Assembly (NCBI GenBank): GCA_963733255.1
Contig: CAVTCH010000019.1
Coordinates: forward strand, 303,791-367,790
Length of the DNA: 64,000 nt
DNA from: an uncultured Actinomycetes bacterium
GTDB taxonomy: Bacteria > Actinomycetota > Thermoleophilia > UBA2241
Reading direction: 5' to 3'
The notes under the pieces are model-generated. The model had not been told where the DNA came from, made no database searches, and was given only the letters and a program-made list of their open reading frames with translations. Shown piece by piece: positions 12,160-16,124 of this stretch (within the stretch, counting starts at the first letter, position 1; each line of letters begins with the position of its first letter). The position numbers were made by a program, and so were the translations under genes.

Positions 12160-12429
12160 CTAGATCGCCGGCTCGTCGTCGCGTGGCGCCGCCGCGACGA
12201 GCGCCTGATCGACCTGGCTCTCGCGTACGCGGGCCGCCCGCAGGCCGTCGTCGAGCGCCAGCCGCGCCCTGCGGCGAGCCACGCCGTAGCCGCGCCGCAC
12301 CTCGGAGGGCAGCTGCAGCAGTACCTCGGTGTAACTCTGGCCCGTCGTCTGCACACGTTCGCGCACGTAGAAAGCGACGCTCGCGCCGGCGAGCGCGCCA
12401 CCGAAAATGAGGGTCCCCCACAGCCTCAC
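12160..12429 (-). CDS. Small membrane-anchored hypothetical protein (YtxH-like position)
   Basis: GTG start overlapping the upstream stop; N-terminal hydrophobic LWGTLIFGGALAGASVAFY; about 89 aa. Confidence 0.6.
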   Translation of the reverse strand: MRLWGTLIFGGALAGASVAFYVRERVQTTGQSYTEVLLQLPSEVRRGYGVARRRARLALDDGLRAARVRESQVDQALVAAAPRDDEPAI

Positions 12430-13046
12430 GCGCCACTCTCCTCGTTCACACCGCTCGCCGGTTCGGGAGCCGGTGGCTCGGGCGCCTCGGGCGCGGGCGT
12501 GGCGCCGGCGGCTCCCGCCGCGGCGTCGGCGGCGGGGGCTTCGGCCGGTCGTGCCGGCGTCGCCGGCGGCTCGTCGTAGCCGGACGGCGGGCTCCACGAA
12601 GCGCCGCTCGGCGCACTCTCGTCGGATTCGGGCTCGGCGGCGTCGGCGCCGCGGTTGAAGAAGCTCGAGACGGCCTGCGAAACGCCTGCACCGAAGGCCG
12701 CCGCCTTCTTGGCCGGCACCGTGATCGCCGACTCGACCATGCGTGTCGTCTGGTCGACCTTCTCGGTGGCATCGACCACGCTCGTCATCACGACACCGAC
12801 CTTGTCGAGCTCGGTGTTGACGCCGTCGAGAGTCTCGGTCGCCTGCTTGAGGAGCGGCACCACCTCGGTGTCGACGTCGGTCATGAGCTTCTCGGCGGAG
12901 CGCAGCGTGCCGCCCAGCCGCACGAGGGCGTAGATCAGCCCGATGCCGACCGCGACAAGAAAGAACGCAGCGGCATAGCGCAACGCCATCGAGGGCGTGC
13001 TGGCACCCACGATCCACAGTGAATCAGTCATCGGCGTCGCCTCCAT
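12426..13046 (-). CDS. DUF948 (YoxC/YtxG-like) membrane protein with Pro/Ala/Glu-rich tail
   Basis: TM helix then coiled region LGGTLRSAEKLMTDVDTEVVPLL...LDKV. Confidence 0.75.
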   Translation of the reverse strand: MEATPMTDSLWIVGASTPSMALRYAAAFFLVAVGIGLIYALVRLGGTLRSAEKLMTDVDTEVVPLLKQATETLDGVNTELDKVGVVMTSVVDATEKVDQTTRMVESAITVPAKKAAAFGAGVSQAVSSFFNRGADAAEPESDESAPSGASWSPPSGYDEPPATPARPAEAPAADAAAGAAGATPAPEAPEPPAPEPASGVNEESGA

Positions 13047-13068: not shown

Positions 13069-14157
13069 TCAGCGCGGACACCCTATCACACCGGCAGAGG
13101 CCGTTGAACGTCGCGCGCCGGCCGTCGTGACGATGCCGCCGCCGACCACGACATCGTCTCTGTAGAGCACCGCCGACTGCCCCGGGGCGACCCCGGCGAA
13201 CGGCTCGCCGAGCTCGATCCGGGCGCGATCGCCGCCCAGCTTCGTGAGCGACGTGACGGTCACGGGCGCGGCCTTGTAGCGCAATTGGGCCATGAGACCC
13301 CTGCCGTCGCCGAGACCGCGGTCGGCGAGCTCGCGGACTTCGACGGACCGTACGGCCAGCCGGTCGGCGGGGCCGACCACGACGCGCCCGGACTCGGGCT
13401 CGACGGCCAGCACGTACAGCGGCTCGTCGGCGCTCACGCCGAGGCCACGCCGCTGGCCCACCGTGAACCGCCACCAGCCGTCGTGGCTGCCGAGCACGCG
13501 CCCGTCACCGTCGACGATCTCACCCGCCCGCCCGGGAGCGCCGCGTGTCGCCAGGAACTCGCGGTGGTCGCCGGGCGCAAAGCAGACATCCTGACTTTCG
13601 GCCTGCTCGGCCGGGGGAAGGCCGGCACGACGAGCCCACGCGCGGACCGCGGGCTTGGTGAGCTCGCCCAGCGGCAGCAGAAGGCGCTCCAGTGTCTCCG
13701 GGGGTACGCGCCAGAGCATGTACGACTGGTCCTTGTCGCGGTCGCGACCGCGCGCCACGCGCGCTGCGCCGGCCACCCGCACGACTCGCGCATAGTGGCC
13801 GGTAGCCACCCACGCGGCGCCGAAATGGTCGGCCAGCAAGAGCAGCCGTTGCAGGCGCCCGGGATTGCACTCGATGCAGGGATTCGGCGTCTCCCCGGCC
13901 AGGTACGACGCGACGAACGGCGACACCACCTCGGCTTCGAACCGCGGCTCGTCGTTCACGCTGAAGTGAGGGCTGCCGATGGCGTGGGCGCTTTCCCTGG
14001 CGCGCGCCAGGGCCGCCGGCGAGCAGCAGCTTCGTTCGTCGTCTTCCGGCCAGAGCTTCAGGGTGGCGGCCCGCACCTGGTAGCCGGCCTCCCGCAAGGC
14101 GAGGGCGGCCACGGCGCTGTCGACGCCGCCGCTCAGGCCTACGACGACGCTTTTTTT
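13069..14157 (-). CDS. mnmA: tRNA 2-thiouridine(34) synthase MnmA (no proximal start codon; see findings)
   Basis: VVVGLSGGVDS PP-loop, SCCS, TPNPCIECN, ATGHYA, KDQSY, ESQDVCF, TVGQRRGLG, APGQSAVLY. Confidence 0.95.
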   Translation of the reverse strand, partial: KKSVVVGLSGGVDSAVAALALREAGYQVRAATLKLWPEDDERSCCSPAALARARESAHAIGSPHFSVNDEPRFEAEVVSPFVASYLAGETPNPCIECNPGRLQRLLLLADHFGAAWVATGHYARVVRVAGAARVARGRDRDKDQSYMLWRVPPETLERLLLPLGELTKPAVRAWARRAGLPPAEQAESQDVCFAPGDHREFLATRGAPGRAGEIVDGDGRVLGSHDGWWRFTVGQRRGLGVSADEPLYVLAVEPESGRVVVGPADRLAVRSVEVRELADRGLGDGRGLMAQLRYKAAPVTVTSLTKLGGDRARIELGEPFAGVAPGQSAVLYRDDVVVGGGIVTTAGARRSTASAGVIGCPR

Positions 14158-14552
14158 CCGAGCACCTTCGCGACGTCTCCGGCGCGGCCCGCCTTGGTCA
14201 GGTAGTCCTCGATGGCGAGGTGCAGGGCGTCGGCGGCGAGGTTGGAGCAATGCATCTTCTGGGCCGGCAGCCCACCGAGCGCCTCGGCGACGGCCCTGTT
14301 GGAGATCTCGGCGGCTTCGTCGAGCGTCTTGCCCATGACCATCTCGGTCACCATGCTCGAGGTCGCCACCGCGGCGCCACAGCCGAACGTCTTGAACTTG
14401 ACGTCGGTGATGCGGTCGTCGTCGACCTTGATCGTCATGCGCATGACGTCGCCGCAGACCGGATTGCCGATCTGCCCGGCGCCGTCGGGTTCTTCGACCT
14501 CGCCGACGTTGCGAGGGTTCGAGAAGTGGTCCATCACGAGATCGGTGTACAT
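14139..14552 (-). CDS. iscU: Fe-S cluster scaffold protein IscU/NifU
   Basis: MDHFSNPRNVG, GNPVCGD, FKTFGCG, KMHCSNLA. Confidence 0.96.
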   Translation of the reverse strand: MYTDLVMDHFSNPRNVGEVEEPDGAGQIGNPVCGDVMRMTIKVDDDRITDVKFKTFGCGAAVATSSMVTEMVMGKTLDEAAEISNRAVAEALGGLPAQKMHCSNLAADALHLAIEDYLTKAGRAGDVAKVLGKKASS

Positions 14553-14556
14553 GTGC

Positions 14557-15714
14557 CTACCTCTTCACGTAGAGCGGACTCATCTCGCGCAGCCGCGCGA
14601 CGATGGGCGGGAAGACTTCGAGGAAGTAGTCGACGTCGGCGTCTGAGTTCTCGTGGCCGAGCGTGAGACGAACGCTGCCGTGAGCCTCCTCGGCGGCGTA
14701 GCCCATGCCGAGGATGACGTGCGAGGGCTCGAGCGAACCCGACGCGCAGGCCGAGCCGCTCGCCACCGCGACACCCTTGCCGTCGAGCTGCAGGACCATC
14801 GACTCGCCCTCGATGAAGCGCACCGAGACGCAGACGTTGCCCGGCAGCCGGTCTGTGGGATGGCCCAGATAGACCGTGTCGTCGATAGCCGAGAGCAGAC
14901 CTTCGGAAAGGCGGTCGCGGAGCGCTTCGAGCCGGGGGCGCTGGCTGGGCATCTCGGCCACGGCCAGCTCGAGCGCGGCGCCGAGACCGACGATGCCGGG
15001 CACGTTCTCGGTGCCCGAGCGCAGCCGTCGCTCGTGGCCACCGCCGTGCAGGATGGGCGCCACGCGTGTACCACGCCTGATGTAGAGCGCGCCGATGCCC
15101 TTGGGCCCGTACAGCTTGTGGCCCGACAGCGACAGCATGTCGACGCCCAGGTCGGCGACGTCGATGGGCAGCGCGCCCACGGCCTGGACGGCGTCGGTGT
15201 GGAACGCGGCGCCGTGCTCGTGCGCGATCCGGGCAAGCTCCTTGACGGGCTCGATGGTACCGACCACGTTGTTGGCGAACATGATGGACGCGAGACGCGT
15301 ATCGTCGCGAAACGAGGCGGCGTAGGCGTCGGTGTCGACGACGCCCCGGCTGTCGACCGCCGCGAAGGTCACCTCCCAGCCCTGGCGCATGAGGGCCCGC
15401 GCCGTCTCCATGACCGCGGGGTGCTCGATCGCGCTGACGATCAGATGCCCCGGCTCGAGGCGCGCAAGGAAGCCGCTCAGAGCCAGGTTGTCGGCCTCGG
15501 TGCCGCCGCTCGTGAAGACGATCTCCTTGTCGGCCGCGCCGAGCGCCGCCGCCACCTGGACACGAGCCTTGTCGACGGCTGCGCGGGTCTCGCGGCCGAA
15601 CCGATGGATCTCCGACGGATTGCCGTAGCGCTCCACGAAGTAGGGCTCCATCTCGGCGAAGACGCGCGGGTCGACCGCGGTCGTCGCCGCGTGGTCGAAG
15701 TACACGGTTCTCAT
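14557..15714 (-). CDS. iscS: Cysteine desulfurase IscS/NifS
   Basis: YFDHAATT, FTSGGTEADN, SGHKLYGPKG, SGSACASG. Confidence 0.96.
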   Translation of the reverse strand: MRTVYFDHAATTAVDPRVFAEMEPYFVERYGNPSEIHRFGRETRAAVDKARVQVAAALGAADKEIVFTSGGTEADNLALSGFLARLEPGHLIVSAIEHPAVMETARALMRQGWEVTFAAVDSRGVVDTDAYAASFRDDTRLASIMFANNVVGTIEPVKELARIAHEHGAAFHTDAVQAVGALPIDVADLGVDMLSLSGHKLYGPKGIGALYIRRGTRVAPILHGGGHERRLRSGTENVPGIVGLGAALELAVAEMPSQRPRLEALRDRLSEGLLSAIDDTVYLGHPTDRLPGNVCVSVRFIEGESMVLQLDGKGVAVASGSACASGSLEPSHVILGMGYAAEEAHGSVRLTLGHENSDADVDYFLEVFPPIVARLREMSPLYVKR

Positions 15715-16124
15715 GTCGTGATCGCCTCCACGCAAAGTTCATCGAGACTTATGTCGCCCAGCGCTCGGCTGATGGCGTCGTCGAGACGCCGCCACACGGC
15801 CTGCGACGCACAGCTGCCGGCCCTGGCGCAGCCGCCTTCGTCGGGCAGGCAGCCGACCAGCGACAACGGGCCTTCGATGGCGGTGACGATGTCGGCCACC
15901 GAGATGGCGCCGGCCGACCGCGACAGCCGGTAGCCGCCGCTCGCTCCGCGCGTGCTGGCGACCAGGCCGCCCTCGCGCAGACGAGCGAGGATGCGCTCGA
16001 GGAAGGCGGTCGGCATGTCTTCGCTGCGGGCAATCTCGGTGAGGGGCACGGGATCGTCGCTGTCGGCGCGCGCCAAGTAGATCATGGCGCGCAGGCCGTA
16101 CTCGCAGCGGGACGAGATCCGCAC
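15711..16124 (-). CDS. Rrf2-family regulator (IscR-like, three Cys)
   Basis: YGLRAM, LVASTRGASGGYRL, CLPDEGGCARAGSC; heads the iscS-iscU-mnmA operon. Confidence 0.92.
   Translation of the reverse strand: MRISSRCEYGLRAMIYLARADSDDPVPLTEIARSEDMPTAFLERILARLREGGLVASTRGASGGYRLSRSAGAISVADIVTAIEGPLSLVGCLPDEGGCARAGSCASQAVWRRLDDAISRALGDISLDELCVEAITT

Follow-up and report, generated by a model that had tools for sequence, protein, structure and literature searches.

A conserved slippery heptamer at the iscU–mnmA junction of an actinobacterial family suggests programmed −1 frameshifting into a tRNA-thiolation enzyme

In the insertion sequences IS911, IS3 and IS1222 of the IS3 family, the upstream open reading frame (ORF), OrfA, ends a few codons past an A_AAA_AAG/A heptamer, and the downstream frame lies at −1 without a start of its own, the products being a short upstream protein and an OrfAB fusion. 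To our knowledge, few bacterial genes outside mobile elements use a conserved programmed −1 frameshift; dnaX, copA, chlD and csoS2 are examples. Escherichia coli dnaX (tau/gamma) and copA (CopA/CopA(Z)) slip on A_AAA_AAG and C_CCA_AAG, respectively, with tRNA-Lys(UUU) as the slipping A-site tRNA; the copA motif is reportedly CCCAAAG. A frameshifted chlD, encoding an AAA+/VWA chelatase subunit, has been reported in actinobacteria, with AT-rich slippery sites and downstream structures (PMC9227772). Here we describe a comparable arrangement at the junction of iscU and mnmA, genes of iron–sulfur (Fe–S) cluster assembly and of tRNA 2-thiolation, in a 64,000-nucleotide (nt) stretch of contig CAVTCH010000019.1 (hereafter the window) from an uncultured actinobacterium of the Thermoleophilia. 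Its genome, hereafter G000, comprises 3.1 Mb in 19 contigs, with 69.8% G+C, 95% completeness and 4% contamination.

The ORF list and Pfam matches delineated a four-gene minus-strand operon for an Rrf2 regulator, a cysteine desulfurase, IscU and MnmA (Table 1). On the minus strand, iscU ends in GTG CTC GGA AAA AAA GCG TCG TCG TAG, in which A_AAA_AAA fits the X_XXY_YYZ pattern when read with iscU; the zero-frame stop lies three codons past this heptamer. The mnmA gene lies in the −1 frame relative to iscU and reads CGG AAA AAA AGC GTC GTC GTA GGC CTG AGC GGC GGC GTC GAC AGC across the junction, which translates as RKKSVVVGLSGGVDS. The product of a −1 slip, ...VLGKK-SVVVGLSGGVDS..., joins 134 IscU residues to 360 MnmA residues; this exact frame arithmetic bears out the fusion of about 494 amino acids by a −1 shift on the A7 run that a preliminary description of the locus had proposed. 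The −1-frame stretch holds 362 codons counted from the first AAA, and the MnmA frame matches all three Pfam domains of the enzyme (tRNA_Me_trans, _M and _C), the match beginning at ORF residue 34. The gene is single-copy in G000. The arrangement is thus that of IS3-family OrfA/OrfAB; however, iscU and mnmA are chromosomal housekeeping genes rather than mobile ones, and no convincing stem-loop or pseudoknot stimulator was found for them. With dnaX and copA the junction shares the non-mobile setting, and the slip motifs differ only in the last base. The shifted product of those two genes is, however, the shorter one, whereas the shifted product of iscU–mnmA would be a long fusion and the sole route to the downstream enzyme.

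The junction was then compared within the family of the window (f1), which consists of uncultured soil and sediment actinobacteria; peat and digester samples contain such organisms as well. Among the 89 genomes searched, 83 contained mnmA at E ≤ 1e-30; 80 junction loci were examined, and after exclusion of L007 and L085, in which the N-terminus fell outside the contig, 78 were assessable. Of the 78 junctions, 63, distributed over eight genera, place a slippery heptamer in frame with iscU and have mnmA in the −1 frame. This supports the earlier proposal that a −1 shift is the only route to mnmA, yielding both free IscU and IscU–MnmA. The A_AAA_AAA type accounted for 17 of the 63, with 11 junctions in genus g1 (including L008, the contig of which begins at the run) and one each in g2, g3, g4, g5, g9 and g11. 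The other 46, including L035 and L064, carry C_CCA_AAA and all belong to genus g10, where the heptamer invariably lies nine codons 5′ of a TGA located inside the CTG AGC codons of LSGG. In g5 and g9, the junction reads C_CCA_AAA_AAA and contains both heptamers. MnmA identity among the slip-type genera falls as low as 52% (range 52–90%).

No heptamer was found in 15 of the 78 junctions, 13 of which have mnmA starts of their own (11 in g6 and 2 in g7); in six of the 11 g6 junctions, no iscU was present within the 450 nt taken. Relatives with separate genes, which had been named as a possible refutation if the A-run were not conserved, therefore exist in g6 and g7, but the run is kept in the genus of the window and in six further genera. 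Alone among the g10 genomes, L071 has lost the heptamer (CTT CCA GAA); its mnmA frame instead contains a TAA-ATG, placed 12 codons ahead of the PP-loop serine. This combination of heptamer loss and ATG gain is the pattern predicted by a functional slip site. In four relatives (L013, L019, L024 and L026), the tblastn matches to MnmA were truncated or divided between frames; such internal breaks of the frame may reflect assembly errors or decay.

Alignment of unique junctions showed that the heptamer and the G that follows it are 100% conserved in 16 of 16 A7-type and 44 of 44 C_CCA_AAA-type sequences, and that flanking positions within 10 nt of the heptamer are 41–95% conserved. The variable positions 3′ of the heptamer are third positions of −1-frame codons (+8, +11, +14, +17, +20/+26, +35, +38 and so on). 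This −1-frame wobble variation starts at the heptamer, already within the overlap with the iscU tail. Amino-acid entropy over the 12 downstream codons was 0.18 bits in the −1 frame versus 0.51 in the iscU frame for the A7 group, and 0.39 versus 0.95 bits for g10. The residues from the heptamer to LSGG are conserved in the −1 frame with wobble variation, indicating that they are translated. The slip site is conserved beyond coding need among diverged relatives. In G000, AAA makes up 7.7% of Lys codons (1024 AAA versus 12226 AAG, the latter 92%), and the run is invariant among relatives; it exceeds what chance would give, and consecutive AAA codons are as conspicuous here as the preliminary description had remarked. 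A7/T7 runs as such number 12 in the 3.1 Mb genome versus about 8 expected.

A usable start codon for mnmA is absent from nearly all of these junctions. Both genes could be seen in 62 junctions, and in 60 of them no ATG, GTG or TTG occurs 2 to 30 codons before the PP-loop Ser. Further upstream, the −1 frame is without any canonical start between the upstream stop and the heptamer in 37 of 60 scored junctions, and in 5 more it is open to the locus edge. The only in-frame start in the window is, as had been noted, a TTG inside iscU with an Arg-rich leader, and this leader is iscU read in the wrong frame. As the mnmA start, the TTG at 14250 was rejected: it is absent from the other nine scored g1 junctions, and the leader is not conserved. 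Every candidate ATG, GTG or TTG for mnmA of the window falls either past the essential SGGVDS or in this non-conserved leader, and the MnmA peptide SVVVGLSGGVDSAVAALALR lies 5′ of every canonical start. Public gene calls for the clade are 336–362 amino acids long and start MAALALREAGY... or MDSAVAALKL..., after or inside SGGVDS (P0001, P0061 and P0067). In Thermus thermophilus MnmA, the PP-loop mutation D13A is reported to abolish activity (PMC7025502). MnmA as called lacks the ATP-binding PP-loop, and given this effect the database entries describe inactive proteins.

Taken together, the locus probably uses programmed −1 ribosomal frameshifting to produce a 137-amino-acid IscU and a 494-amino-acid IscU–MnmA fusion, with predicted masses of about 14.5 and 53 kDa, respectively. 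Ribosomes translating iscU would reach A_AAA_AAA with tRNA-Lys(UUU) on both AAA codons. The majority would stay in frame, add Ala-Ser-Ser and terminate, releasing free IscU, whereas a minority would slip back by one base, re-pair on AAA AAA, take AGC as the next codon and continue through mnmA. As the only product with a PP-loop, the fusion would be the only active form of the single MnmA of the genome. That slippage takes place on the ribosome itself we infer from the two motif types, both of which are canonical heptamers that place AAA in the A site. A run of four A's is far too short for efficient slippage of RNA polymerase. Ribosomal −1 frameshifting is the sole mechanism that accounts for the A7 and C_CCA_AAA groups alike. 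G000 has one tRNA-Lys(UUU) gene and two tRNA-Lys(CUU) genes; with tRNA-Lys(CUU) present, a heptamer ending in A rather than G would be expected to let the A-site tRNA re-pair, and the final A, in place of the G of dnaX and copA, would fit such a genome. In E. coli, C_CCA_AAG and A_AAA_AAG rank with the motifs most prone to shifting, and frameshifting is proven for an insertion-sequence cluster with A_AAA_AAA (PMC5009743, PMC4066793). The background of −1 product is reported as roughly 0.05% (PMC4066793).

A second site of the same kind came from a scan of other A7 runs (loci L133–L163). At G000:C2:129439-129445, outside the window, a MoxR-like AAA+ gene ends in ...GAR KKA-stop, and a VWA gene follows at −1 with a G+C content at third codon positions of 0.94. 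In 28 of 30 f1 loci, A_AAA_AAA (16 loci) or C_CCA_AAA (12 loci) stands at the end of the AAA+ gene, the next base is G, the stop is at most a few codons away and VWA lies in the −1 frame; these loci include g6, g7 and g8. A predicted GC-rich hairpin follows the heptamer, its sequence varying by genus while the pairing is kept. This junction is similar to that of the frameshifted chlD, which in turn resembles iscU–mnmA in being a conserved cellular frameshift through which a single locus encodes two proteins, one short and one long. The proteins and pathway of chlD are, however, unrelated to those of iscU–mnmA, and no counterpart to the clear hairpin of the AAA+/VWA site was found at the iscU–mnmA site. 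The second site indicates that such heptamers are recoding signals of the lineage, which supports a frameshift at iscU–mnmA, and also that AAA was not chosen specially for mnmA.

Several observations weigh against this interpretation. A stimulatory fold was not detected in the 80 nt 3′ of the heptamer (z = −1.27, with 18 of 200 shuffles equally stable). RNAalifold predictions for both heptamer groups consisted of almost entirely invariant pairs with no covariation signal, with helix starts at +12 to +19 or at +1, versus the usual 5–9 nt; the helices are in any case dictated by the P-loop coding sequence. The codons of CTCGTCGC...GCGGCGG are also present in relatives with separate genes, and an upstream AAGG(TG) is not conserved in g10. 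The 13 codons upstream of the heptamer are variable in both frames (1.07–1.29 versus 1.29–1.45 bits), so that the frame switch is sharp downstream only. Additionally, four junctions hint at another route to mnmA. The two exceptions to the absence of nearby starts, both of the A7 type, have a start exactly at the iscU stop (ATG in TAATG in L003 and GTG in GTGA in L014); in L055, a TTG serves as the Leu codon immediately before the PP-loop Ser; and in L021 (G018, genus g8), mnmA lies 56 nt past the iscU stop with neither a heptamer nor an ATG, GTG or TTG. A GGAG followed by ATC, about 60 nt ahead of the PP-loop codons of L021, may be a non-canonical start. Of the GC-rich stems that the preliminary description had placed after the run, the sequence is real but a stimulatory role is not supported, the fold being no better than shuffles. 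A candidate stem, CUCGUCGC/GCGGCGGG, was likewise unconvincing, its codons being present in relatives with separate genes as well.

These four junctions are the basis of an alternative in which mnmA is initiated independently or by coupling, the start being non-canonical or overlapping and close to the iscU stop, and the heptamer is kept for the Lys or Pro-Lys residues that it encodes. Coupled re-initiation could contribute in L003 and L014, and L021 implies that at least one member of the family initiates at a non-canonical start. As a general account, such initiation is quite improbable, given the 60 of 62 junctions without a nearby start, the −1-frame conservation with wobble variation between the heptamer and LSGG, the invariance of AAA in a genome that writes 92% of its Lys codons as AAG, and the coincidence of the sole heptamer loss in g10 with the gain of an ATG. 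Transcriptional slippage, which we regard as unlikely though slightly less so, would have the polymerase add one A on A7/T7, a share of A8 mRNA then encoding an in-frame IscU–MnmA without any slip of the ribosome. An A7 homopolymer is of the sequence kind known to slip, one added A gives the exact mnmA frame, and in E. coli the under-representation of AAAAAAA extends to every frame, for which such slippage is a possible reason (PMC4066793). The 46 slip-type junctions with C_CCA_AAA, however, have four A's and three C's in the same place and frame arrangement, and in two studies the RNA contigs that span the run (13976-14181 and 14128-14243) show A7 with no gaps, although minority forms are hidden in contigs. 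In the A7 genera, slippage of the polymerase may nevertheless supplement that of the ribosome.

The preliminary description had also raised the alternative that a homopolymer error conceals an A8 and hence a plain fusion. Such an error, or a recent frameshifted pseudogene of an in-frame fusion, is very improbable and already contradicted by the census. Gross homopolymer artefacts do occur in this 19-contig bin with 4% contamination: at G000:C8:177596-182875, outside the window, A × 2502, T × 272, T × 150 and a G run lie within one contig and are almost certainly an assembly artefact. However, the 63 junctions share the frame arrangement in separate, independent assemblies, many of them split into hundreds of contigs; as C_CCA_AAA contains no long homopolymer, a systematic homopolymer miscall cannot explain the pattern, and the A8 alternative was rejected. 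Against decay, mnmA is single-copy, intact and under purifying selection at 52–90% identity, with invariant catalytic Cys. A DNA contig from another run is identical to 13920-14168, with 0 differences, and crosses the run without a gap. Contigs of public runs showed no indel at the A7 run in four runs, with the proviso that contigs omit rare variants and that flanks were shorter than 31 nt; altogether, the contigs give the A7 run weak support.

Both partners of the predicted fusion carry the residues that define their classes. IscU residues C33, C58, H101 and C102 are invariant in 36 relatives; we take them to be the cluster ligands, as in E. coli IscU. By its NifU_N domain, three Cys and a His before the third Cys, the IscU of the window is classed as an IscU-type Fe–S scaffold. 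MnmA residues C44, C45, C94, C97 and C192 vary little or not at all across 40 aligned sequences. The corresponding CC-CxxC-C signature was defined by Shigi et al. and tied to a [4Fe-4S] cluster required for thiolation (PMC7025502). With SGGVDS, this signature and the three MnmA domains, MnmA of the window is assigned to the C-type, Fe–S-dependent tRNA 2-thiouridylases, which supports the earlier suggestion that a Cys-rich MnmA could be Fe–S dependent. A tether to IscU would couple the supply of Fe–S clusters or sulfur to tRNA 2-thiolation, and such coupling is the purpose that we infer for it. A second nifS–iscU pair was observed outside the window at G000:C4:9622-11405 (region to 11748), preceded by a small gene that is DsrE-like by eye. 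SufB and SufD were not found in the 95%-complete G000, in which Fe–S assembly seems to rest on two minimal NifS–IscU pairs. Given the second pair and the lack of SufBD, the operon of the window may be a dedicated tRNA-thiolation module.

The same two domains are joined in frame in sister families. P0072 (522 amino acids) and P0077 (586 amino acids) each join a true IscU in frame to MnmA and are 54–55% identical to MnmA of the window. Elsewhere in the class, a sample of 47 junctions from other families, with one junction for each genus, was read by eye, alongside a 401-genome search (tally 388/401); two unpublished genomes are counted in the tally and absent from the 47. A long in-frame N-terminal extension with IscU-like motifs was present in 13 of 13 junctions of family f2, 4 of 5 of f4, 6 of 6 of f6, 6 of 7 of f7 and the single ones of f8 and f10 (1/1 each). 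NifU_N scored above the Pfam cut-off in all nine extensions tested from these six families (9/9, 53–79 bits). Family f3 has a shorter in-frame N-terminal domain of about 80 amino acids without Cys in 14 of 14 junctions (L099–L112), with the consensus ...GLTLLEAAAV.GE.LA.DALANA...; neither NifU_N nor any other Pfam family matched this stretch in L099, the one case tested, and the domain may be a decayed remnant of a NifU-like domain. On these readings, the sampled families of the class typically join NifU_N to MnmA in frame, which the preliminary description had not foreseen.

These fusions share with the predicted frameshift product the domain order, NifU_N followed by PP-loop MnmA in one polypeptide, and, by the comparison of sequences, they show that the tethered form is functional. 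They differ in being single ORFs, many with ligand Cys lost (as read by eye, many of the fused NifU-like domains lack the third Cys or, in f6, the second), whereas IscU of f1 keeps its ligands and would also be released free. In a tree of MnmA (28 rows, L019 being omitted as interrupted), f1 formed one clade with support of 100/99. All slip-type lineages fell into one clade (87/85), with g6 and g8 nested in it and g7 outside. The polytomy in this tree is compatible with a single origin of the slip site followed by losses or with several origins.

The A-site codon is AAA in both heptamer types. Under canonical pairing, AAA is read by tRNA-Lys(UUU) alone, and MnmA has tRNA-Lys(UUU) among its substrates. 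When this tRNA lacks 2-thiouridine at position 34 in E. coli, −1 frameshifting at G_GGA_AAG, the lambda G/GT site, goes up (PMC3296357). The slipping tRNA would thus be a substrate of the enzyme whose synthesis needs the slip, and negative feedback would be automatic if the E. coli effect carries over. It is conceivable, though we hold it rather doubtful, that the frameshift acts as a feedback sensor of tRNA thiolation, in which under-thiolated tRNA-Lys(UUU) would raise slippage, and hence IscU–MnmA synthesis, and full thiolation would lower it. Only in this feedback reading does the locus resemble the prfB (RF2) frameshift, where the slip codon is decoded by a molecule whose supply the product controls; prfB differs in shifting by +1 versus −1 and in using a stop codon and release factor versus a sense codon and modified tRNA. 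If true, the model would provide an RF2-like autoregulatory loop for a tRNA-modification enzyme, one that also sets the split between free and MnmA-tethered scaffold.

The features of the locus are collected in Table 1. The ATG of iscU lies 4 nt after the desulfurase stop (14552-14557), a tight operon packing. The Rrf2 ORF (from 15711) and the listed TTG start of the desulfurase (15735) overlap by 25 nt, which suggests that the true desulfurase start lies further downstream.

Table 1 Features of the iscU–mnmA locus, in window coordinates
Feature	Coordinates	Strand	Basis
Rrf2-family regulator, operon gene 1	15711..16124	−	ORF; Pfam Rrf2 127.7 bits
Class-V aminotransferase, a NifS/IscS-type cysteine desulfurase	14557..15735	−	ORF; Pfam Aminotran_5 291 bits, full profile
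iscU, 137 amino acids, zero frame, C-terminus VLGKKASS, stop TAG 14139-14141	14139..14552	−	Pfam NifU_N 172 bits
TTG, sole upstream canonical start in the mnmA frame of the window	14248..14250	−	Not conserved
mnmA-frame ORF, sole in-frame start TTG at 14250	13069-14250	−	ORF list
A_AAA_AAA, slippery heptamer read with iscU; the next base, 14150, is an invariant G	14151..14157	−	Sequence and conservation
mnmA coding sequence, −1 frame, from the slip site to TGA 13069-13071, without an initiation codon of its own	13069..14157	−	
PP-loop SGGVDS, ATP-binding motif of MnmA	14116..14133	−	Sequence
MnmA CC pair	14023-14028	−	
MnmA CxxC (C94, C97)	13867..13878	−	CC-CxxC-C signature
MnmA, last Cys of the signature (C192)	13582-13584	−	
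DUF948-like membrane protein gene 3′ of mnmA (context only)	12426..13046	−	Pfam DUF948 36.5 bits, cut-off 37.2

Literature searches found no report of an iscU–mnmA frameshift, although supplementary lists of candidate clusters could contain such a case. The part available of a recoding review (PMC5009743) mentions no mnmA, NifU or thiouridylase; the main text of the GeneTack paper (PMC3711429) mentions none of these and no trmU; and the main text of the preprint 10.1101/2025.10.02.679949 contains no mnmA, NifU or thiouridine. The iscU–mnmA junction is thus likely to be a new conserved cellular case of a known mechanism, −1 ribosomal frameshifting.

Such a frameshift would join two core pathways, Fe–S cluster assembly and wobble-uridine thiolation, in at least eight genera and 63 species-level genomes. 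The current MnmA gene calls of the clade are wrong, being truncated and missing the ATP-binding loop, and annotation pipelines consequently under-report the intact enzyme. With the slip codon read by the substrate tRNA of the enzyme itself, the feedback model is directly testable. Fusion of NifU_N to MnmA, either in frame or by the proposed frameshift, occurs in seven sampled families of the class. Collectively, these fusions provide genetic evidence from nature for a direct partnership of C-type MnmA with an IscU-like protein, and they bear on how, and whether, MnmA enzymes use Fe–S clusters.

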